Shown in pieces: positions 1,967 through 15,921 of a stretch of 64,000 bases of DNA (its first letter is position 1; each line of letters opens with the position of its first letter). The stretch lies in NCBI GenBank assembly GCA_964486045.1, contig CAZALK010000010.1, positions 64,001 to 128,000 on the forward strand, given 5' to 3'. The DNA comes from an uncultured archaeon. Lineage in GTDB: Archaea; Asgardarchaeota; Lokiarchaeia; Sigyniarchaeales; SOKP01. The notes beneath the pieces were generated by a model, which saw only the letters and a program-made list of their open reading frames with translations, made no database searches and was not told the DNA's origin. Position numbers and translations under genes: made by a program.

Positions 1967-2926
1967 TTAAAAAAGATTTGAAATTAAATATGAAAACACC
2001 TCATCAATTCCTTCTCCTGTGAGTGCTGATGTTTCAAAAAAAGGGAAATCATATTCCTCTGCTAAATCTTGAGCTCTGGATCTAATTTCTTCCCGATCCA
2101 CTGCTATATCGATCTTATTTCCAACGAGAACAATTGGAATTGATTTATCTTTAATGAATTGATGAGTTTCTTTAATCCAATCAATTATATTATTAAAGGT
2201 CTCTATTCTAGAATAATCGAATAAAATTAGAACCGCATTTGAATAGTTATAATAATATTTTCTAACTTTAGCAAAGCTTTTTATTCCTCCTAGATCGAGG
2301 AGATATAATAATAGATTATAATTCTTTGAAATTTGTAATTTTTTTTCTATTATTGAAATTCCGATTGTAGGTTTGTAAGCTTCATTGTAAGTTCCCATAC
2401 AATACATTCGTACTAAAGCACTTTTCCCTGCTGATTCAGGTCCCACAACAACAATTTTATTTTGATTATTTTTAGTATACAGTGTCCTATTTTTAGGTTT
2501 AAATATTAATTGCATATTTTCGTTTAATTTTGGAATTTTTGATATAGACTCTTGATTATTTAGAATCAGTGATATTTTTTCTGCTGTTAAATAGGCATAT
2601 GGAATAATTTGATCAATATTTGAATAAGGATCTCCTATTAATACAAAAATTGCGGGAGTTACTTTTTTTAACTCCACAAAAAATAGTTGAAATTCATTGG
2701 TACTGAATGTTCCACATCCAAATGAAGTTTCAGCATATTGTCTAATTCTATTTATTGTTTGATCCAAAATTGACATAATAGCTCCTATCATTTCCTCATC
2801 AAATCCTCTGATTGACTGTTTAGCAATAATTAACCCATCTAAATCTAAAATAATGGTTGCTAATAATCCTTGTGTTTCATAAATTAAATCTGAAAGTATA
2901 TCTTCTAGTACTCCTAATTTTGACAT
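1967..2926 (-). CDS. Roadblock/LAMTOR domain fused to a Rab-like small GTPase
   Basis: N-terminal roadblock pattern (GLLATIILDLDGLIIA...EEMIGAIMS); G1 GPESAGKS, G2 YKPTIG, G3 DLGG, G4 NKID, G5 ETSAL; no C-terminal Cys. Confidence 0.9.
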   Translation of the reverse strand: MSKLGVLEDILSDLIYETQGLLATIILDLDGLIIAKQSIRGFDEEMIGAIMSILDQTINRIRQYAETSFGCGTFSTNEFQLFFVELKKVTPAIFVLIGDPYSNIDQIIPYAYLTAEKISLILNNQESISKIPKLNENMQLIFKPKNRTLYTKNNQNKIVVVGPESAGKSALVRMYCMGTYNEAYKPTIGISIIEKKLQISKNYNLLLYLLDLGGIKSFAKVRKYYYNYSNAVLILFDYSRIETFNNIIDWIKETHQFIKDKSIPIVLVGNKIDIAVDREEIRSRAQDLAEEYDFPFFETSALTGEGIDEVFSYLISNLF

Positions 2927-2932
2927 TAGTTT

Positions 2933-3598
2933 CTATAGATCCATATTATATTTGATGTTTAAAATTTTGAATAAATTCTTTAAAATATTCAGACTAGGAA
3001 TGAAGCACATTACACAATCTATTTTTATCTCTTTCAGTGCCAAGTTCGTTTTGATTAAAACCAAATAATCTGATATTTGAGAATATTTTGCAATAATTCT
3101 ATTTAGCATTGCATTTAATGTGTCAAGTGCTACTGTAGGAACATTAGGGACTAATTTAATTGACATTAAATCAGCTAAACCATTTGCATAATGCCCAGAT
3201 AATATGTTACCTATTTCAGTTATGATGCTTAACGAAAGCTCGTCAAGATCCTCACTAGTTCTTACGTTTTCAACAGAAAGATTAGAATCTTCATTCAGAT
3301 AATTAACTAAATTAAAGATTGATTCTTTTGTAAATATTTGAATAATTGATAAATCTGATGTAAGGTGGATTTCAGAATAGATCCCAAATACCTCAACTTT
3401 TGGGCTTTCAAATAATTCTTCTACCTTCCAGAAGGGAATAATATCAGCTGAAGTTAGTGAAACCTCTATTTCATAATTAAATAATTTTGAAAAAGCTGTA
3501 ATTGCATGCCCAGACCCGATGTTTCCAATTTCCTTTAACATGTCTAATTGTTCTGGAGTTAGGTGGAATTCTTCTGGTATCTTAAAATCGTTATTCAT
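2933..3598 (-). CDS. cheC: Chemotaxis phosphatase CheC
   Basis: Two D/S-x3-E-x2-N motifs (DMLKEIGN, SIITEIGN). Confidence 0.92.
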   Translation of the reverse strand: MNNDFKIPEEFHLTPEQLDMLKEIGNIGSGHAITAFSKLFNYEIEVSLTSADIIPFWKVEELFESPKVEVFGIYSEIHLTSDLSIIQIFTKESIFNLVNYLNEDSNLSVENVRTSEDLDELSLSIITEIGNILSGHYANGLADLMSIKLVPNVPTVALDTLNAMLNRIIAKYSQISDYLVLIKTNLALKEIKIDCVMCFIPSLNILKNLFKILNIKYNMDL

Positions 3599-3624: not shown

Positions 3625-4173
3625 TTAATAAAATTTTTTAAAATCTGTTTCTCCAGTTGATTTTACATACAAGGAAAAATCGTTTGTGTCAAAAATCACG
3701 TTTCTCCCCTTTGAACCCCCAGTCTCTTCTTTGATAATTTGTATTTTTAATATATCTAATTCTTCCTTAACAGAAGCGATATTATTAAATCCCACATCAT
3801 TATTTTCTAAATCAAATATTTTTGAGCCTCCTATAATAAATGCCCTAATATTCTCTCTTACAGCACCATGATTTAGTAGTTCTTCCATTAATAATTTTAC
3901 AGAAAAGCTTGCGTATTTATGCGGATATTGGATTATTTTAGTTGGACTTGCTTTGGGTAATAAAATATGAGACATTGCGCTTAATTTGTTTATTTCGTCA
4001 AATAAAACCAGGGCAATGCACGAGCCCAATCCATAAATTGAAATAGTTGGTTTACGATTTGAAAGAAAGTTTTTGCTGTTAGAGAGTGCATAATGCCCAA
4101 TTAGTACAGATATATTTCCATTTCTATCCGTTTCCTTGATTTGATCAATTGGCTCTATAATACTCACCTTCAA
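3625..4173 (-). CDS. cheD: Chemoreceptor glutamine deamidase CheD
   Basis: GLGSCIAL...HILLP catalytic Cys/His; GGSKIF, ETGGSKGR motifs. Confidence 0.93.
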   Translation of the reverse strand: MKVSIIEPIDQIKETDRNGNISVLIGHYALSNSKNFLSNRKPTISIYGLGSCIALVLFDEINKLSAMSHILLPKASPTKIIQYPHKYASFSVKLLMEELLNHGAVRENIRAFIIGGSKIFDLENNDVGFNNIASVKEELDILKIQIIKEETGGSKGRNVIFDTNDFSLYVKSTGETDFKKFY

Positions 4174-4199: not shown

Positions 4200-5318
4200 T
4201 TATATAAATTTTGTTGCAAATTTAATCATATAATCATGAACTTTATATACTGGAAGTATTAGATTTGCTGCACCTAGCTTTGCTGCTGCTCTTGGCATCC
4301 CATAAATAACACATGTCTCCTCAGATTCAGCGATAGTTTTGCCACCATTATTTTTAATTGCTTTTAATCCCCTTGCACCATCATCTCCCAACCCTGTTAA
4401 TAGAATTCCCATTACATTATTTTTGTATATTTCTGCAGCTGAAAAAAATAAAACATCCACAGAAGGTTTGCAAAAATTGACTGGTTTATCATCAGATATT
4501 CGAATGTGAGGTCTATTTTTTATAGTTATAATCTTCGTGTGTTTTCCACCAGGACTCAAGTAAACATTACCGGGTAATATTCTCTCCCCATCGTCTGGGA
4601 TTTTTACGTTTATTTCACAAACTTGATCCAGAGATTTACTAAGTTGTTTCATAAAAAATGCATCAAGATGTTGAACGATCAAGATTGGGCTTGGAAAATC
4701 CTGAGGAATCTCTTTTAAAATAAATTTTAAAGTTCTTGGTCCACCGGTGCTGGTGCCTATTACTATTAAATTTGCTTCTAATATAAGTTGAGGAGCTTTT
4801 GGAAGATGTAACGGTTTGGGTTTTATTGGTGTTCTTATTTTTCTCTTTACTTCTAATTCATTAATAGATTGTTTGCTAATTGATTTTCTTATTAGATTAT
4901 TTCGTTTTTCATAACTTTTTTTTATTTTTGCTGCGTATAAAACACTTGAAACTAATTTTTCTTGAACCTTTGGGAATTCAGTTTTCCATAGACCTTTGGG
5001 TTTTATTATAAAATCTAATGCTCCTAAAAGTAACGCTTGAACAGAATTATCTAAGTTTTCTGGATTAAAAACTGAAAAAATTATAGTTGGTATTGGATAA
5101 TGTTCTGAAAGAAATTTTAATACTGTTAACCCGTCAACCTCAGGCATTATTAAATCTAATATTAATACATCAGGATTCAACTCTTCAATTTTTTCAATTG
5201 CCTCCCTCCCGTTTCGAGCAGTATCAACAGCAGAAATTTCATTGTGTGAAATTAGCATTTCAGAGATTAATTTTCTTTGATATGCTGAATCTTCTGCAAG
5301 TAATACTCTAACAGACAT
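4200..5318 (-). CDS. cheB: Chemotaxis response regulator / methylesterase CheB
   Basis: N-terminal REC (LDLIMP); methylesterase GTSTGG, VQHL, GLGDDG, KPSVD, YGMP. Confidence 0.96.
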   Translation of the reverse strand: MSVRVLLAEDSAYQRKLISEMLISHNEISAVDTARNGREAIEKIEELNPDVLILDLIMPEVDGLTVLKFLSEHYPIPTIIFSVFNPENLDNSVQALLLGALDFIIKPKGLWKTEFPKVQEKLVSSVLYAAKIKKSYEKRNNLIRKSISKQSINELEVKRKIRTPIKPKPLHLPKAPQLILEANLIVIGTSTGGPRTLKFILKEIPQDFPSPILIVQHLDAFFMKQLSKSLDQVCEINVKIPDDGERILPGNVYLSPGGKHTKIITIKNRPHIRISDDKPVNFCKPSVDVLFFSAAEIYKNNVMGILLTGLGDDGARGLKAIKNNGGKTIAESEETCVIYGMPRAAAKLGAANLILPVYKVHDYMIKFATKFI

Positions 5319-5326
5319 GATAATGT

Positions 5327-6358
5327 TTAATTGACCTTCATATATATTCGATTTAATGAGTCTACTAACTTTAAATTACTCTGGGAGCTAAAAATTGTTT
5401 CTGTTTTACCTATGATTAATAAGCCCCCTGCATTTAAACGATTTTCAATGATTTTTAAGAACTTATTTCTTGCAACTCTATTAATGTATATTAGGAGATA
5501 TCGACAAAAAATGATATCATAAACCTGTGATGTTTGATGGCCTTTCATTACATCTTCCCCAATAAACTTGATATACTTTTTTATTTTTTCATTTATAGTG
5601 TATGTAAATCCGAATCCCACTTTTTTCTTCAAAAAGTAATTTTTTTCAAAATACTTTGAAACATTTTTTGTTGATTCTTCGTTATACACTCCGATATTTG
5701 CTCTTTTAATAGCGTTTTCATCAATATCAGAAGCTATAATTCTGAATTTAGGAAATTGTGGAATTTGTTTTTTAAAATTATCTAAAATTATTGCAATAGA
5801 ATATGGTTCTTCACCGTTTGCACATGGACAAGACCAAATATTAATAGTCTCCTTAAATCTTTGGAAATTCTTCAGCTTTTTATATAAAATACTTTTTGGA
5901 ACGATTTTCTTTGCTGATAATTTATTTTTTAACCTGTGTTCTAAGTCCTTCTTTCTATTGGAAATCTTTTCAATTTTATTTGGTTTCTTTTCACTTTTTT
6001 TACGATATTTTCTTTCTGGATTGGGATGTAAATTACTAATTACATCTTCTCTTTTGTAATTTCCACTTTTTAATATAATGTCTTCCAATTGGTCATAAAC
6101 TTCCCAATTTCTAAAAAAAGTAGAATAATTGATATTAAAACTAATTAAAAATTTATTTATTTCTTTAGGATTTTCTACTAAATATTTGTAATACGATTCA
6201 AAGTTAGAACAATTAACACGAATCATTCGAGATTTAATTCTTTTCTCGATATGTTTTCTTTGATAATATCCTAGTTTTAACCCAGTTGTTTTATTCAAAA
6301 ATCGAATTAATAAATCATAAAAATCCTCATCAAATTTAATATCCTCAATTAGTATCAC
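5327..6358 (-). CDS. cheR: Chemotaxis methyltransferase CheR with a lysine-rich insertion
   Basis: INYSTFFRN, IWSCPCANGEEPYS, IIASDID, DIIFCRYLLIY, GGLLIIGKTE. Confidence 0.93.
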   Translation of the reverse strand: MILIEDIKFDEDFYDLLIRFLNKTTGLKLGYYQRKHIEKRIKSRMIRVNCSNFESYYKYLVENPKEINKFLISFNINYSTFFRNWEVYDQLEDIILKSGNYKREDVISNLHPNPERKYRKKSEKKPNKIEKISNRKKDLEHRLKNKLSAKKIVPKSILYKKLKNFQRFKETINIWSCPCANGEEPYSIAIILDNFKKQIPQFPKFRIIASDIDENAIKRANIGVYNEESTKNVSKYFEKNYFLKKKVGFGFTYTINEKIKKYIKFIGEDVMKGHQTSQVYDIIFCRYLLIYINRVARNKFLKIIENRLNAGGLLIIGKTETIFSSQSNLKLVDSLNRIYMKVN

Positions 6359-6368
6359 TTGTGAACAC

Positions 6369-6923
6369 TTATTTTTCTATTAATTTTTCAATTTCGGTAA
6401 ATCGTTCACTGATACGTTCAAATGAATACTTAATATGCATTTGGATTTCTTTAACTTCGGCAAAAAGCTTTCTTATATGAGATCTATCGGACTTTGATAA
6501 AACAAACTGATTTTTTGAATATATTTTATGAATTGGCTCATGTATAGATGGAGAAGAGACAAATGGCTCTAAAACCTCATCCCTACTAAATTCTTGTCTA
6601 GATTGCCCAGGAAAACTTAGATCAGAAACATCCTCTTTAATTTCTTTAAGTATACTAACGAATTCAGCAGGTTCAATGCCTTGTTTTATAACTTCATATT
6701 TGAAATTATAAAATTTCTTCTTAGTTTTAAGTTTTCCAGCCCAATTCGCTGCCATGTACCTATGAAACAACCGGGAGTGACTACCTGCCCAGATCCAAAT
6801 TAGTTTTAGTCCTTTATCTACAATTAAATAAACTTCAGAGGGATTGAACAACTTCTCTGGTCTGAGCTTGATTGTTTCACCGTCGACCTTATAAACATAA
6901 TCGTAATAGCTACTTTCTGTCAT
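6369..6923 (-). CDS. Single gelsolin-domain protein with a C-terminal helical/coiled-coil extension
   Basis: FNPSEVYLIVD-x5-IWIWAGSHS and VIKQGIEPAEF match the gelsolin-repeat pattern. Confidence 0.75.
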   Translation of the reverse strand: MTESSYYDYVYKVDGETIKLRPEKLFNPSEVYLIVDKGLKLIWIWAGSHSRLFHRYMAANWAGKLKTKKKFYNFKYEVIKQGIEPAEFVSILKEIKEDVSDLSFPGQSRQEFSRDEVLEPFVSSPSIHEPIHKIYSKNQFVLSKSDRSHIRKLFAEVKEIQMHIKYSFERISERFTEIEKLIEK

Positions 6924-7034
6924 TCTTTTGGGTTTTTAACGTATTGAGAAGAGTTTATTTTAATTTAGATTTCCTAGTAATTTGTACAAAATATAAAAAA
7001 AAATATTAGTTTGATTTATCGTTATTCAAATTTT

Positions 7035-9035
7035 CTACGAATAGAACCTTAATAGAGCATCTAATAATTCCTGGAGTGTTTCTAAGTTTGGAATAAATAA
7101 GAAAGTTCCTGTAATTTTAAAATCTGTTACAATCACGCTCGTATCTATAACTAGTGATAATTTCTTCAATAGCCCAATTTCTTCTTTTAGAATCCTAAAT
7201 AACTGTTGTCCAGTGTCTACAGACATGTCAGGAGGTTCTGTCATCAATTTTAAGCCAAGTAAATTACCAATTGCACTTACATAATGACTTCCAAGAATAT
7301 GTCCTAGTTCAGAGAGTGCACTTTTATAGAGGTCAGGAAAATCAGAAGCCTTGTTAATTTTCTTTCTTAAATCTATCTGCCTTTTACTAGTATCATCAAC
7401 TATTATTGAAGTAATGTCAACTGCATCTTTCAAATTAAATATTGTTAACACTGTAGCTCTTGCTCTTCCAACAACATTACTCCATGCAACTAAGAGTTTT
7501 TCATCTTTTCTGCTAATTGAATTTGCATAATCATCTAATTCCACCATCTGAACGGAAGGAATGTTGATATCAACTCTCTTGTTAATCATCTGAGCTAAGG
7601 CATTTGCAGCATTCCCTGCGCCTATATTACCAACTTCTTGAAGGGCATCTCTTTGAACTTCCGAGAGTTCAATTTTTGATAACTCCAGAAGTTCAGGAGC
7701 TTTTTTAGTTTTTGCTGGTGTTTCTGAAATTTCATGTCTAATTTCAAGTTTTTTAAAGATAATTGAGAGAGTTTCAATATCTGGAATAAAGAAGAACATA
7801 CCTTTTAGTTTTAAGTCAGATACTTTTATAGATGTCTGAATGATAATGAAAAAATCTGCAATCGCTTCAAATTCTTTTGAAAGAAATTCCCCTATTTCCC
7901 CAGCAGTACTCATAGTAAATTCAGGGACGTCAATCATTAGCTTTGTGCCAAGCAGATCAGCTAAGGCTGAAGCATAATGACCTGCCATAATGTTTCCCAT
8001 TTCTGTTATCGTGGATATAGCATAATCATCAAGATCCTTTTTAGTTTTAACCTTATTAGGTACAATCTTTGAATCTGGACCTGCTAAATCTGATATTAGA
8101 TGCATTAGGGGCTTCATTTCAAAGATATTCAGTATAGTTGCTGGAGAGGGCTTTTCTATATGACAAAAAATTCCACATACTTTATCATTTTTACCACCGA
8201 ATTGGCTTGGGAGTTCATCTAATGGAATTATGCCTACATCAGTGAGAGTTACGTCAATCTTCTTTTTTACTAATCTAGATAAAGCAGTGACTGCATTTCC
8301 TGTCCCAATATTCCCTAATTCTTTCAAAGTGTCTTGTTGTTCTGCTGATAAAACTACTAGCTTTTCTTTTTTAACTTTTTTAACTTTTTTGGTGGTTGTT
8401 GCTTTTGGTAGTTTTTGTTTCTTTTTTGGTGCTTGAACAATTTGTGGAATTACAAGCGTAGAATCAATATCTGGTCTATCAATTATCTTCGGTTGCACTT
8501 TAGGACGTTCTAGGCTTGTTGGCTTTATATCGATTTTTTTCTCAATTTTTCGACCCATTGATTTGATATATGGCTGAATTAAAGCATCTAAATCTAATAA
8601 TATCAAAGATTCATCCTCGAATACTCCGGTTAATTTTATTAGTTTAAAATCTATATTAGTCTTAACAATAGTTCCTTGTTTTTTGAAGATTGCAAGGGGT
8701 ATATCTCTAACACCGATTACTACATCTACTAACACTGCTATTTTAAGATTTCTGTATTCTAGCAATAAAATCCTTGAAAACTCATCGATGCCATAATCTA
8801 TATCATTCCCATATATATTATGTCTTAATGATATGATTGAGTAGATCTCCCCTCTTATACTGATAATGCCCACGATTGATTTATCTGTTAATGGTACAGA
8901 AACAATATCATCTCCGGGTACATAAATTTCCTTAATGTTTGAAACTTCGAGAAGATATTTTTCATCAAGCACTTGTATTATTACCACATTTATGTTTTCT
9001 CCAAATTCTATTTCTTCAGATTTACTTTTAAACAT
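7035..9035 (-). CDS. CheW-CheC-CheC fusion protein
   Basis: N-terminal CheW (VGIISIRGEIYSIISL, IAVLVDVVIGV), K/P-rich linker, two CheC domains (DTLKELGN, STITEMGN; DALQEVGN, SALSELGH). Confidence 0.9.
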   Translation of the reverse strand: MFKSKSEEIEFGENINVVIIQVLDEKYLLEVSNIKEIYVPGDDIVSVPLTDKSIVGIISIRGEIYSIISLRHNIYGNDIDYGIDEFSRILLLEYRNLKIAVLVDVVIGVRDIPLAIFKKQGTIVKTNIDFKLIKLTGVFEDESLILLDLDALIQPYIKSMGRKIEKKIDIKPTSLERPKVQPKIIDRPDIDSTLVIPQIVQAPKKKQKLPKATTTKKVKKVKKEKLVVLSAEQQDTLKELGNIGTGNAVTALSRLVKKKIDVTLTDVGIIPLDELPSQFGGKNDKVCGIFCHIEKPSPATILNIFEMKPLMHLISDLAGPDSKIVPNKVKTKKDLDDYAISTITEMGNIMAGHYASALADLLGTKLMIDVPEFTMSTAGEIGEFLSKEFEAIADFFIIIQTSIKVSDLKLKGMFFFIPDIETLSIIFKKLEIRHEISETPAKTKKAPELLELSKIELSEVQRDALQEVGNIGAGNAANALAQMINKRVDINIPSVQMVELDDYANSISRKDEKLLVAWSNVVGRARATVLTIFNLKDAVDITSIIVDDTSKRQIDLRKKINKASDFPDLYKSALSELGHILGSHYVSAIGNLLGLKLMTEPPDMSVDTGQQLFRILKEEIGLLKKLSLVIDTSVIVTDFKITGTFLFIPNLETLQELLDALLRFYS

Positions 9036-9079: not shown

Positions 9080-9940
9080 TTATTTTATCATAATTCCTTT
9101 CCAGATTAATTCTACTTCAGGATCATCCTCATTCACTTCAGTGTAAAAGTCCAATTGCTTAAAAATCGAAATTTGGCCACCACTTGTGTGTTTATAAACG
9201 TAATTTAGTAAGTCATCAATACTAATGAAATTAAATCCTGCTACTTTTAATTCTGAATCATTCACAATTAACAAGTCTTCTCGTTTGAAAAAACGATTTT
9301 CTTCAATAAATTCTACCATCAATGTAGGATCTACCTCTTTACTAATTACCTTAATTGGTGTGTCAAACGGTATATTTCGAAACGACTTACTGGTTGCAAA
9401 AATAACCTTATCTGGAAGTAGATTTTCTTGCTTAGCATAATTGGTAATTTCAGTTAATACTTTCTTGTAATTACTTAATTCTAAGATATCGTGACAAGAA
9501 ACCAACAACACTTTATTTTCACTAGTTTCAATGATAAAATCAAGAAACCGATCTGAACTAGAATTTATATTAATTTTTATTGACTCTACCTTCAAATCTT
9601 CCGTATATTTAAGATTTTGATAGAATCTCCACTTTACTGCTTTTTTATCATTTTCTTCCCTGCTGATAAAAACTTGAAAAAGTTTTTTCAATTGTTCAAG
9701 GTTTAATTTCGATAAATCTGCTATTTTATCAACATCAGTACCTATTGGAACATAATCCTTACTAGTAGTTGTCTTTGACTTTGATTTTGTGTTTTTAGTT
9801 TTTTTGGTTTTTTTAGATTCAACATCATCCAAATAAATTTGTAATTCGCTTTTTGTGAATTTTGGGAGAATTTGTTCAATAAGGTATAATAAATATTCTT
9901 TCGATTTATCATCCATTGTTTCATAAAACTGTAAATTCAT
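9080..9940 (-). CDS. Hypothetical protein in the che cluster
   Basis: 286 aa, GGAGG ribosome-binding motif upstream, co-oriented within the cluster. Confidence 0.8.
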   Translation of the reverse strand: MNLQFYETMDDKSKEYLLYLIEQILPKFTKSELQIYLDDVESKKTKKTKNTKSKSKTTTSKDYVPIGTDVDKIADLSKLNLEQLKKLFQVFISREENDKKAVKWRFYQNLKYTEDLKVESIKININSSSDRFLDFIIETSENKVLLVSCHDILELSNYKKVLTEITNYAKQENLLPDKVIFATSKSFRNIPFDTPIKVISKEVDPTLMVEFIEENRFFKREDLLIVNDSELKVAGFNFISIDDLLNYVYKHTSGGQISIFKQLDFYTEVNEDDPEVELIWKGIMIK

Positions 9941-12035: not shown

Positions 12036-14114
12036 TTAATTAGTTATTTGAGATACTATATTTTTATTGAACTTCGAAGAAATTATACTTAGCACATCAA
12101 TTATTAGACAAATAGCCCCTTCACCTGTTATTGTAGAACCTAAAATATCACGAGAATCTGAGTAATTAGATTTAAATGGTTTTACAACAATGTCAAGCTG
12201 CTGTAGTTGTTTGTCAGCTATAAATACTGCCGAGTTTGTTTCATCTCTTTGGCACCAAACAGCTATTTTTTTATGAGCGTTTGTTGTACTTTTCTTTACC
12301 ATCTCTAAATGCTCCTCTAAATAAATTATTGGTATTTTTTTACTACCAATTCTGTAATATTGTTCTCCATCTTCATGTTCAACCTGATTTGGGTTGAAGA
12401 AGTATATTTGTTTTATGTTTTCAGTTGGAATAGCGAATAAGTCATTAGAAATTTGCATTAGTTGTGCTCTTAGAATTGCTCGTGTAAATGGAACAATTAG
12501 TGTAAATCTTGTTCCAATATTTTTTTCAGAGTAAATTGTAAAATCTCCACCAAGTTCTCCTATTTTCTCAGCCACTATAGCCATTCCCATACCTCTTCCG
12601 GAAAGGATATCGGCCTCAGAGAGTGTTGAAAATCCAGGCATTAAAATGAATTTATGAAGCTCTTCATTATCTATCTCTTTTACCTCGTTCTCATCGTAGT
12701 AACCTTTCTCTACAACTTTCTTTCTAATTTTATCGTAATTAATCCCAGCACCATCATCTTGTACTTCAATATAAATTGAGCCTGCTCGTCTATATGTATT
12801 GATTCTCAAAGTGGCAACGTCATTTTTACCCATTTTCCGCCTTTCCTTCGGTAACTCTATTCCATGATAAATAGCATTCCTTATAAGCTGAACTAAAGGA
12901 GAATTTAGGTCTTCTAAAATTTTCCTGTCAATTTCGACATTTGTTCCTTCTAAAATCAACTTAAGTTTTTTACCAGTTTCATTTGCTAAATCGCGAACTA
13001 ATCTCTTATATTTTCTAAATGTTGACTCAACTCTGACTAATTTTAATCTGAATAGAATTTCTTGAATATCGAGAAATGGTTTATCCATTTTATCAAATAA
13101 TCGAGAGATAGTTCTATCTTGTTTTTCCTTTAAAAGTTGAGAGATATGATTCTTCATTACTATTAGTTCTCCAAAATAATTCATAAGCTCTTCTAAGTAT
13201 TCAACATTAACTTTTACACTAGAAATTCTAATAGTTTCTCCCGAAAAATCATCTACTATTTTAGAAACCCTTTCAACCTCTTCATCAAAAGTCTCTTCTT
13301 CCATATCAGTTTCATATCTTGATTCTATACTTACATCCTCAGGTTTCTCCCTTTCCCATTGTTCTTTAAGTTCGATAATTATTTTTTCAAACTCTTCAGG
13401 TTTCATTGGTTTTATGACTTTGCTTTCAATCTCTAGGATCTCAGCGATCGTGTGAGATATTTCGGTTTTATTCTTTGTAGTTATGAAGTATATTTCAAAC
13501 TCATTCTTCAAAGTTGCTTTTTCTAAATCTTCAGGAGCAGGATGAGTCCAGCATATTTTGCCATTTTCATTTAGTGCTCGAAATATTATAAATAACCTAA
13601 CTTTTTTGAAGACACATGTTTCTTCAAGCCTAATATAAATTTTAAATGGTTTGTTCTGCTTTTTTTGTAGAATTTTAGAGATTTCTTCTTGTGATAACGC
13701 TTGGATAAATGTTATATCGTAATCACTTTCAAAACTTTCAAAGCTATCTTTGATATCTTCCACAAATTTTGCGTCTAAGTCAGTTAAATCTCCAGTTTTT
13801 ACTCTTTTTATTACCATTCTTAACACATCAAGTGATTCAAAGAGCATATCAACGAAATCACTTTTCTTATTAAGACTGGCTTTTTTTTCTTTTGCATTTT
13901 CTAAAAAGGATTCAAAATGATGGCAAAATTTTGATAAGTTATCAAACCCTGCCATTGCAGTTAATCCTTTTAACGTGTGAAAAGTAAAAAAGAGTCCTTG
14001 AACTGGTTTTAGATCATCTGGATTTTCCTCTATATTTAGAATTTCATCTTCTGTTTTCTGAATCAGATCCTCTGCTTCACTAACAAATAGTTTCATATCG
14101 TCTTTGGATGACAC
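12036..14114 (-). CDS. cheA: Chemotaxis histidine kinase CheA
   Basis: Hpt FHTLKG, P2 domain, LIRNAIYHGIE, DDGAGI, PGFST...SGRGMGM, C-terminal CheW-like P5. Confidence 0.97.
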   Translation of the reverse strand: MSSKDDMKLFVSEAEDLIQKTEDEILNIEENPDDLKPVQGLFFTFHTLKGLTAMAGFDNLSKFCHHFESFLENAKEKKASLNKKSDFVDMLFESLDVLRMVIKRVKTGDLTDLDAKFVEDIKDSFESFESDYDITFIQALSQEEISKILQKKQNKPFKIYIRLEETCVFKKVRLFIIFRALNENGKICWTHPAPEDLEKATLKNEFEIYFITTKNKTEISHTIAEILEIESKVIKPMKPEEFEKIIIELKEQWEREKPEDVSIESRYETDMEEETFDEEVERVSKIVDDFSGETIRISSVKVNVEYLEELMNYFGELIVMKNHISQLLKEKQDRTISRLFDKMDKPFLDIQEILFRLKLVRVESTFRKYKRLVRDLANETGKKLKLILEGTNVEIDRKILEDLNSPLVQLIRNAIYHGIELPKERRKMGKNDVATLRINTYRRAGSIYIEVQDDGAGINYDKIRKKVVEKGYYDENEVKEIDNEELHKFILMPGFSTLSEADILSGRGMGMAIVAEKIGELGGDFTIYSEKNIGTRFTLIVPFTRAILRAQLMQISNDLFAIPTENIKQIYFFNPNQVEHEDGEQYYRIGSKKIPIIYLEEHLEMVKKSTTNAHKKIAVWCQRDETNSAVFIADKQLQQLDIVVKPFKSNYSDSRDILGSTITGEGAICLIIDVLSIISSKFNKNIVSQITN

Positions 14115-14138: not shown

Positions 14139-14537
14139 TTAGGCTTTTTTATACTTTAGTATACGATCCATAACCTCTAAGATTTGTTCAGTTTTGAATG
14201 GTTTTTGGATAAAATCTTTTGCCCCTTTTTTAGCAGCTTCTAGAACTAGAGCTTCCTGTCCTAGTGCTGATACTACAACGATTAATGCCTTTGAGTTTAT
14301 TTTTAGAATCTCCTCTGTAGCTTCAATTCCACCCTTTTCTGGCATTACTAAGTCCATAGTGACCAAATCTGGGCTTAATTTTTTATATAGGGAGATTGCT
14401 TCTACTCCGTTGGAGGCTTCACCGATTACTTCAATTTGTTCGATCTTGCTAATGATGTTTTTTAGCATATTTCGGGTAAATTGCGCGTCATCGACGATAA
14501 GTACCCTTTTCTTCCCATTCTTTTCATTCTTTGACAT
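14139..14537 (-). CDS. cheY: Chemotaxis response regulator CheY
   Basis: VDD, TMDLVMP, VSALGQ, DFIQKPF; adjacent to cheA. Confidence 0.95.
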   Translation of the reverse strand: MSKNEKNGKKRVLIVDDAQFTRNMLKNIISKIEQIEVIGEASNGVEAISLYKKLSPDLVTMDLVMPEKGGIEATEEILKINSKALIVVVSALGQEALVLEAAKKGAKDFIQKPFKTEQILEVMDRILKYKKA

Positions 14538-14566: not shown

Positions 14567-15088
14567 TTATGTTAATGATGATAAATCTTGTTGAATCCTA
14601 AATTTTTCTACCTCGCTAAAAATCTTAGATAAGTCAAGCACCACCCTTGGTCTATCCTCAAAATTAATTATACCTTTGATAAATTCAATAGCAACACTTG
14701 TTTGAAAAATAGGACTCAACCCAATAATCTCCTCAGGAAGGATGTGATCAATACTGACTATTTGATCCACATAAAAACCTATGAGATCATTTTCTACTTT
14801 TAAAATTATTATAAACTTCTTTGTCTCACTTGAATCTTGTTCAAAAGAGGACCGCTTCTCATGGTATAAGAGGTATTTATCTAAGTCTAATTTTCTTCTT
14901 AAGTTAATTACATGAATAATATCTCCCCTGTAATTGTATATACCATCTATATAGTCGATGCTTTTCGGTAATTTCCTGATTTGTCCTGCCTGAATTATTT
15001 CCTTAACATCCAGGAGGTCAATAACAAATTCTTCCCACCCTATTTTAAAAGTAAGGATGGAAATTTGATCTATTTCTTTTTGAGCCAT
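14567..15088 (-). CDS. cheW: Chemotaxis coupling protein CheW
   Basis: VKEII...LPKS...GIYNYRGDIIHVINLR, GFYVDQI. Confidence 0.93.
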   Translation of the reverse strand: MAQKEIDQISILTFKIGWEEFVIDLLDVKEIIQAGQIRKLPKSIDYIDGIYNYRGDIIHVINLRRKLDLDKYLLYHEKRSSFEQDSSETKKFIIILKVENDLIGFYVDQIVSIDHILPEEIIGLSPIFQTSVAIEFIKGIINFEDRPRVVLDLSKIFSEVEKFRIQQDLSSLT

Positions 15089-15108: not shown

Positions 15109-15921
15109 TTATATTATAAAATATTGGTTAATGTTTTTTTCAAATTCGTTAAAGGGAGTTACATCCCCATTAAAATTTTTTAAATAGTCTTTATATTGAT
15201 ATAAAAATTCATCTGCAATGAGGTACATATACCTTTGAAGCAGTGAATTCATATTGTCTACCAAAAATGCAAAAATTACATTACTTTTTGATATAACATA
15301 GAATTGTTGATTCCCAAAATTAATTTCCTTGAGCTTAGCACCAGTTTCCTCTCCTATAATTGTATTGGAAAAGGATAAAAGAGCTGAAATAAATCCACCA
15401 ATGTGAACCTCGTGGTCAGCAATATTGCTACGAGCCTTATTTATTTTTGAAATAAAAGGACTTCCCGCAGAACCAATTACGAAAATAGCAATAATTCCCT
15501 CACTTCGAGGGATTTGAACCGTATTCTCAAATACTTCTATTATCTCTGTGATTGAAGCATTCGAAACTACTTTTTGATTTATTTTTTTTGATAAGAGGTA
15601 TAGACTTCCAAAACTTACAGACTGGTCCTTTTCCTCCATATAAATAATAACTGAAATATCATCCTCACTATTTTTAAAATATTGGATGAAAATTGTAAAA
15701 TCATCTAAAGGAATGATTGAATTTCCCTGCTTTTTGTTAATTATCTCTTTTTTATATAATTCAATAATATTCTGGATAAGCGGGACACCTATTCCTTTTT
15801 GAAATCCAATGTCAAATTTAGCACTAGAGCTAATGTCTGAAATCATTAAAATGCCATAACCTAGCATCTGTAATTTTTCTGAGCCATTGTTACTATTTTG
15901 AGCATTGTTCATAGCTATCAT
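15109..15921 (-). CDS. Longin-domain protein (possibly two longin-like domains); first gene of the che cluster
   Basis: C-terminal IFVIGSAGSP...GGFISALLSFS...LKEINFG...EFLYQY...FNGDVTPF, the Asgard longin pattern. Confidence 0.7.
   Translation of the reverse strand: MIAMNNAQNSNNGSEKLQMLGYGILMISDISSSAKFDIGFQKGIGVPLIQNIIELYKKEIINKKQGNSIIPLDDFTIFIQYFKNSEDDISVIIYMEEKDQSVSFGSLYLLSKKINQKVVSNASITEIIEVFENTVQIPRSEGIIAIFVIGSAGSPFISKINKARSNIADHEVHIGGFISALLSFSNTIIGEETGAKLKEINFGNQQFYVISKSNVIFAFLVDNMNSLLQRYMYLIADEFLYQYKDYLKNFNGDVTPFNEFEKNINQYFII

Follow-up and report, generated by a model that had tools for sequence, protein, structure and literature searches.

Does the gelsolin-domain gene found among the chemosensory (che) genes of this archaeal DNA belong to the Che system and, if it does, could it connect the Che system with the actin cytoskeleton? 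The window, i.e., the whole stretch of 64,000 nucleotides that was analysed, comes from an uncultured Asgard archaeon of the Lokiarchaeia. The gene is called GEL hereafter; its parts and its neighbours are collected in Table 1. The strings EVYLIVD, IWIWAGSHS and QGIEPAEF and the C-terminal stretch IRKLFAEVKEIQMHIKYSFERISERFTEIEKLIE, which were quoted by the initial annotation as the signs of a gelsolin-like repeat and of an amphipathic helix, are all located within the 184-residue ORF of GEL.

Table 1. Features of the window around GEL, in the order of transcription, and positions of three sister paralogues. Residues are numbered in GEL; identities are mean pairwise values calculated from the alignment of GEL orthologues.
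Feature	Position	Strand	Residues	Description or evidence
270-aa protein	15109-15921	(-)		ORF; first gene of the conserved block
cheW	14567-15088	(-)		ORF, Pfam
cheY	14139-14537	(-)		ORF, Pfam
cheA	12036-14114	(-)		ORF, Pfam
Ig/DUF11-like protein, 671 aa	9967-11982	(-)		ORF, Pfam
286-aa protein	9080-9940	(-)		ORF
CheW-CheC-CheC fusion	7035..9035	(-)		Pfam CheW 3e-16; CheC 2.1e-40 in four stretches
AT-rich spacer, 111 nt	6924..7034	(-)		between cheW-cheC-cheC and GEL; T run, then TATA-like stretches
GEL gene (P0001)	6369..6923	(-)		ORF and translation; 184 aa, single gelsolin domain, stop codon included
Gelsolin domain	6624..6908	(-)	~6-100	AlphaFold model, Foldseek, VIA-align, HMM matches
Core			10-100	73% identity
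Long helix stretch SHSRLFHRYMAANWAGKLK			48-66	90% identity
Post-domain motif D-L-x-[YF]-P-G-Q-S-R	6594..6623	(-)	101-110	nearly invariant
Variable linker	6495..6593	(-)	111-143	33 aa; 15% identity, length varies
C-terminal amphipathic helix	6372..6494	(-)	144-184	~40 aa; 64% identity
cheR	5327..6358	(-)		GTG start; Pfam CheR 1.7e-42, CheR_N 3.7e-11
cheB	4200-5318	(-)		ORF
cheD	3625-4173	(-)		ORF
cheC	2933-3598	(-)		ORF
Roadblock-Ras-family GTPase fusion	1967-2926	(-)		Pfam Ras 7.9e-36; weak Robl_LC7 match
GEL paralogue	L024:1327-1875
GEL paralogue	L026:1498-1998
GEL paralogue	L030:1486-2124

Fold and architecture of GEL

The full-length homologues of GEL (197 sequences of about 180 residues) are all archaeal or Asgard by label, and the start Met is the same in the 37 orthologues that were aligned (37/37). 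The Pfam model Gelsolin (PF00626) gives 14.8 bits on GEL (E 0.025), i.e., less than its curated cut-off of 21 bits, and a search of NCBIfam with GEL gives no match. The search of the ESM Atlas leads only to unnamed Asgard clusters and to one cluster in which 15% of the members carry Gelsolin. When GEL is compared with PDB chains by phmmer, villin is matched at 4.6e-6 and ProGel (7c2f) at ~4e-5; 2DGel3 (7c2h) and Heimdall 2DGel (7whf) are matched too, these Asgard gelsolins all being at ~4-5e-5. The profile made of the 37 orthologues reaches ProGel at 3.7e-6.

The AlphaFold model of GEL was built on the 37-orthologue alignment. Its mean pLDDT is 67, with values of ~70-79 in the core and ~52-54 for residues 62-75, i.e., a moderate confidence. 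The modelled domain comprises five strands (10-14, 17-20, 31-36, 41-46 and 76-80), a long helix (51-61) and a short helix (86-96), the mixed beta-sheet being packed between the long helix and the shorter one. The best Foldseek match of the model is 7c2f_B (E 6.8e-4, TM 0.66 on the target), and the top matches are all of the gelsolin family. The VIA-align comparison with ProGel gives Z 7.8 and an rmsd of 2.4 A over 78/88 residues. The best 50 VIA-align rows are all gelsolin, villin, CapG, adseverin or fragmin; Sec23/24 chains are absent from these best 50 rows. D36, W45 and G47 are invariant in the 37 orthologues and make up the DWG motif, by which gelsolins can be distinguished from cofilins (Akil et al. 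2020, PMC7444086). The gelsolin assignment is firm despite the sub-threshold Pfam score, because phmmer, the family profile and the structure model all agree. The gelsolin-like repeat read by the initial annotation is thus found by each of these methods, and structure prediction, which had been named as a check of the fold, gives a model that matches gelsolin-family domains, ProGel being the best one.

The acidic residues of the calcium sites are, as we take them, an Asp at a strand end with a Glu on the long helix, and an Asp at the helix end. The alignment of GEL to 2DGel3 indicates that this set is not retained: (i) D36 is kept; (ii) the Glu of the helix is replaced by the invariant His54; (iii) the acidic residue of the helix end falls in the Lys-rich stretch KLKTKKK. 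A calcium-regulated gelsolin, of the 2DGel or eukaryotic type, was considered for GEL and rejected on the basis of these replacements. Since the acidic residues are replaced, GEL looks calcium-independent, like ProGel and 1DGelX.

Downstream of the domain, P105, G106 and R109 of the post-domain motif are invariant among the 37 orthologues, and the conservation of L102 and S108 reaches 90% or more. The linker, with pLDDT values of 36-43 in the AlphaFold model, is probably disordered. The C-terminal end is modelled as one helix (144-183) with pLDDT values of 70-91; it has no Pfam or NCBIfam match. I150, V157, I164, I171 and I178 occupy the heptad a positions of this helix. Its invariant columns are Q161, Y166, S167 and R174, and the positions flanking heptad a are partly polar (Q161, S167, R174). 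Such polar and invariant positions would agree better with the binding of a particular partner than with simple homodimerisation as a coiled coil. The division into a linker and a C-terminal amphipathic helix, initially proposed from the letters of the sequence, agrees with both the model (pLDDT lower than 50 for the linker, much higher for the helix) and the identities of Table 1.

About 8 other gelsolin-domain genes are present in the source genome, elsewhere than in the che cluster. In the tree of gelsolin domains, the 37 GEL orthologues form one clade with a long stem, apart from the other gelsolins, at a modest node support (0.62). The sister of this clade is a small paralogue family of 166-212 residues with the same plan, i.e., domain, linker and C-terminal amphipathic helix. 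No che gene is found near these sister paralogues, and their genera are without detected CheA. This plan is thus older than the che link. The C-terminal helix alone is consequently no mark of array docking, since the paralogues share it.

Fusions of GEL with a Che domain were looked for as well. None is found among the longer proteins searched, which is a weak evidence. A profile search against 1.84 billion representatives gives 15 proteins with E 1e-30 or better; all have at most 205 residues and none is a fused form. As no fusion is found among the relatives, no partner of GEL is supported by fusion evidence.

Gene neighbourhood and distribution of GEL

The ORFs and the Pfam matches place GEL in a run of co-oriented che genes, as had been annotated, and this place is kept in 25 related loci from at least seven genera. 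The neighbours were mapped by tblastn in these loci, 13 of them short and 12 of up to 20 kb (L039-L050). GEL comes directly after cheW-cheC-cheC in 25/25 loci, the protein identity being 43-68%. The conserved order that ends in GEL is: 270-aa gene (putative, presumably longin-like), cheW, cheY, cheA, Ig-like gene, 286-aa gene, cheW-cheC-cheC, GEL. The order of this eight-gene block is common to L039-L050; the gene located 3' of GEL varies.

In the window, the stop codon of GEL (TAA, 6369-6371) is followed 10 nt downstream by the GTG start of cheR (6358), and cheR is also located 3' of GEL in several of the related loci. In three loci of the same genus as the source (L039, 10532-10684; L011; L014), GEL is followed by a cheR remnant of ~50 codons and then by cheB. 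The gene directly 3' of GEL is cheB in L016/L041, L017 and L050, where cheR is not found beside GEL, cheD in L048, and the roadblock-GTPase gene in L046 and L049 (gap of ~20 nt). No recognisable gene is found 3' of GEL in L044 and L045. Because the gene 3' of GEL differs between loci, the coupling to cheR is a local feature of the window. The tight coupling claimed by the initial annotation thus stands as a 10-nt gap in the window but fails as a conserved partnership, cheR being decayed, missing or replaced beside GEL in relatives. For the same reason cheR was rejected as a functional partner of GEL. Besides, GEL and cheB are intact in L039, L011, L014, L041 and L050, where cheR is decayed or missing beside GEL, so the loss of the methyltransferase seems tolerated in such clusters. 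The constant neighbour of GEL is the gene of the array-tethered CheW-CheC-CheC protein.

The upstream spacer of GEL is of ~80-200 nt in all the related loci. In six loci of the genus (alignment A4) it contains 8-11 consecutive T and, after them, TATA-like AT stretches. Such a spacer may act as an internal terminator plus promoter and divide the cluster between two transcription units.

The genome G324, a single contig, has the cluster in two places, and GEL stays with cheW-cheC-cheC. The split is of ~1.08 Mb and falls between the 286-aa gene and cheW-cheC-cheC (L047, G324:C1:1431500-1451499; L051, G324:C1:346000-365999); it is due either to a rearrangement or to a scaffolding error. Another observation concerns the 671-aa Ig/DUF11-like gene, which is matched in two pieces in L044, L045, L046 and L049 (genera g72, g71 and g5). 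The pieces correspond to residues 1 to ~145-240 and ~140-170 to 671 and are ~0.9-1.2 kb apart, so that these lineages have either a split gene or one with a large insertion.

Among 301 sampled genomes of the phylum, only one family out of 30 has full-length GEL orthologues. In the source family (Lokiarchaeia-type Asgard), GEL is present in 33 and CheA in 39 of the 121 genomes, which are related, i.e., these counts are not independent trials. CheA is present in all the genomes with GEL (33/33), and GEL is found in none of the family genomes without CheA (0/82). The same pattern is repeated in seven genera; in genus g4, CheA is present in 2 of the 41 genomes and GEL in the same two. Five genomes have the same CheA type without GEL. 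In each of them a contig ends between cheA and the expected site of GEL, the break falling within the Ig-like gene, immediately behind it or where cheW-cheC-cheC begins. A sixth CheA genome without GEL has only a distant CheA. As contig ends explain the five exceptions, there is no assessable counter-example to the pairing of GEL with CheA.

Outside the family, a distant CheA (24-35% identity) is present in 31 of the sampled Asgard genomes, and no GEL orthologue is found in these 31 genomes with GEL as the query. Two of the distant-CheA clusters were read over 20 kb: they contain classical che genes only, and GEL as well as the four other unusual genes are unmatched there. The comparison of the loci and of the genomes leads to the conclusions that: (i) GEL is a dedicated part of the che cluster in its family; (ii) it is recruited as a fixed component of a chemosensory cluster that is specific to one Lokiarchaeia-type Asgard family. 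The gelsolin-like fold of GEL and its membership of the che cluster, taken together, can be stated with high confidence.

Possible role of GEL

The source genome is 99% complete and contains at least 10 MCP signalling domains. To judge from the genes present, its Che system looks functional. CheF, archaellin and the T2SSF/ArlJ platform have no match in this 99% complete genome, the control genomes being positive. This Che system is thus without a recognised output. In archaea, CheF is the adaptor that connects CheY-P with ArlCDE, the switch of the archaellum (PMC7534055, PMC9126983). With the Pfam model, CheF is found in none of the 301 Asgard genomes sampled, though 46 of them have CheA, and it thus offers no distribution across the phylum to set against that of GEL. 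CheF homologues are mentioned in some Asgard archaea (PMC13705601); either they are too divergent for the Pfam model or they are outside the 301-genome sample.

The preferred reading is that GEL is a ProGel-like, stand-alone, single-domain gelsolin acting as an adaptor between the Che system and the Lokiactin cytoskeleton; its probability can be put at about one half. The mechanism would be as follows: (i) the gelsolin domain, via its almost invariant long helix, would bind Lokiactin at the gelsolin-G1/cofilin site, like ProGel, and probably without calcium control; (ii) the flexible linker and the C-terminal helix would hold GEL to a partner encoded in the cluster, the first candidates being the array-tethered CheW-CheC-CheC protein or CheY-P; (iii) local binding, capping or severing of actin filaments would be coupled to the state of signalling or to where the array lies, the signal presumably running from Che to actin; (iv) GEL would thus supply an output to a Che system that lacks matches to CheF, archaellin and the type-IV filament platform.

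The first of these steps, i.e., the putative binding of actin, is slightly favoured on account of the family to which GEL belongs. ProGel (Thorarchaeota) is the closest solved structure to GEL, with an identity of only 19-23%. PDB entry 7C2F is a complex of ProGel with actin, and ProGel, 1DGelX and 2DGel are described by Akil et al. 2020 (PMC7444086). The long helix faces actin in ProGel and in gelsolin G1, and ProGel binds rabbit actin weakly, with a Kd of ~337 uM (PMC7444086). ProGel and GEL are alike in having a single gelsolin/cofilin-type domain, the DWG motif and no acidic residues of the calcium sites. However, ProGel is a bare domain of ~90 residues whereas GEL adds the PGQSR motif, the 33-aa linker and the conserved 40-aa helix. 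With these 84 further residues, among which two segments are conserved, GEL falls outside the ProGel class when this class is taken as a gelsolin/cofilin domain only. Moreover, GEL is confined to che clusters whereas no che association is reported for ProGel, che genes being unmentioned in Akil et al. 2020 (PMC7444086).

Thor 1DGelX consists of a gelsolin domain and a predicted coiled-coil domain («domain X»); its Kd for actin is 7.7 uM, and both its nucleating and its severing activity are independent of calcium (PMC7444086). GEL has a single gelsolin domain and the 40-aa C-terminal amphipathic helix, which may or may not correspond to domain X. 1DGelX is the best functional precedent for a possible activity of GEL. 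Any likeness is drawn from the description of 1DGelX and not from its sequence, and 1DGelX, which runs like actin on gels, is thus ~2x the length of GEL. No che link is reported for 1DGelX (PMC7444086).

The domain fold of GEL is also that of eukaryotic gelsolin, villin and CapG. These eukaryotic proteins contain three to six domains each, and both calcium and phosphoinositides control their activity; we know of no link between them and two-component signalling. In full-length gelsolin, the C-terminal helix is used as a latch. CheF and GEL are comparable by functional analogy only: both are lineage-specific and encoded with che genes, and CheF links the conserved Che core to a motility or structural machinery. 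There is no sequence or fold relation between CheF and GEL. In Myxococcus, the targets of the Che-type Frz pathway are MreB and the polarity switch made of MglA (Ras-like) and MglB (roadblock). In place of a rotary motor, Frz thus controls a small GTPase, its roadblock partner and a cytoskeleton of the actin family; a roadblock-Ras gene is also carried by the GEL cluster. Nevertheless, Frz is bacterial, it has no gelsolin-fold protein and its components are not orthologous to those of the GEL cluster, where such a link is read from gene context alone.

The full chain from Che signalling to GEL and from GEL to actin is speculative, and we hold it for unlikely. The same doubt applies to a broader scheme, in which the pathway of receptor, CheA and CheY-P would act directly on actin via GEL, the 270-aa (putative longin-like) and roadblock-GTPase genes would take part, and gradients would steer actin-supported protrusions or the cell shape, not a rotary motor. 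Any of the other unusual conserved genes of the cluster (270-aa, Ig-repeat, 286-aa and roadblock-GTPase) could encode the true output.

In archaea, CheF is the known route from the Che system to the archaellum; the Che system with GEL, complete and provided with receptors, has instead a fixed gelsolin-fold protein in its cluster, along with a roadblock-Ras GTPase and a putative longin-like gene. Should GEL bind Lokiactin as well as a Che protein, chemosensing of the two-component type would for the first time be tied by a molecule to an actin cytoskeleton. This would bear on the origin of directed, actin-based cell behaviour before eukaryotes. GEL is a concrete candidate for connecting sensing of the bacterial style with an actin skeleton that resembles the eukaryotic one. 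Even if actin were not its partner, GEL would be a new accessory Che component, of which no description is found in the literature searched.

The main rival of the adaptor reading is that the gelsolin fold is repurposed: GEL would not bind actin but would be a structural or regulatory subunit for the proteins of the cluster. In one version, GEL would work with the putative longin-like and roadblock-GTPase genes in a small-GTPase regulatory platform. The gelsolin-like domain of eukaryotic Sec23 adjoins the Sar1 GTPase and supplies an arginine finger to it, and GEL has four invariant arginines (R51, R55, R109 and R174). The nearest relatives of GEL in sequence and in structure are, however, actin-bound Asgard gelsolins, without Sec23/24 in the best 50 rows. 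Some gelsolin-like domains do not bind actin, e.g., that of Sec23a (PMC7444086). The cluster itself contains eukaryotic signature genes of the trafficking type, among which the roadblock-Ras fusion identified by Pfam. Its GTPase gene comes close after GEL in L046 and L049, but it is missing or a remnant beside GEL in L039, L041, L044 and L045, where GEL is kept. On this balance a repurposed fold is possible but rather unlikely.

It might also be supposed that GEL is an ordinary actin regulator, placed in the che cluster by shared regulation or hitch-hiking and unconnected with Che, either physically or by signalling. The lineage is rich in gelsolin genes, and several others occur in the source genome; in addition, the spacer of ~80-200 nt, with its T run and TATA-like stretches, may provide GEL with a promoter of its own. 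This explanation is nevertheless improbable with regard to four results: the position of GEL is fixed in 25 loci of at least seven genera despite identities of 43-68%; GEL is gained or lost strictly together with CheA; GEL forms its own clade on a long stem; and GEL stays with cheW-cheC-cheC in the split cluster of G324. As for a spurious ORF or a chance likeness to gelsolin, for which only the Pfam score below threshold could be invoked, it is ruled out with near certainty by the 197 full-length, stop-free homologues, by the domain-wise conservation in the alignment and by the agreement of the profile and VIA-align matches.

Actins and receptors

Across 13 genera of the family, the Lokiactin proteins (L057-L080, 23 relatives) have identities of 95-100%; in these genomes the identity of the che proteins is only 40-80%. 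A partner conserved to this extent would be consistent with the near-invariant long helix of GEL, as far as sequences can tell.

Putative chemoreceptor arrays, che genes, eight gelsolin-like genes and a Lokiactin cytoskeleton are reported in one cell, that of «Ca. Lokiarchaeum ossiferum» (PMC9834061). Rodrigues-Oliveira et al. 2022 draw no link among these features (PMC9834061), and the literature searched for a gelsolin gene tied to a che cluster gives no report. GEL makes the role of the putative arrays of L. ossiferum approachable, as GEL (a soluble protein of 184 residues), Lokiactin and CheY can be produced recombinantly.

Two minor observations were made on the source genome. Three MCP signalling-domain matches are found within 9 kb (G000:C2:19059-28172), with an identical score of 117.2 bits each, which suggests that a chemoreceptor gene was recently triplicated in tandem. 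Besides Lokiactin (G000:C1:345094-346236), the source genome has a second actin at L053:1501-2616 (G000:C24:48553-49662), the identity between the two being 83%. Its frame of 386 codons matches the actin model from the start, while the first ATG, GTG or TTG leads to a protein of only 333 residues; this second actin may thus have an unusual start or a damaged N-terminus.
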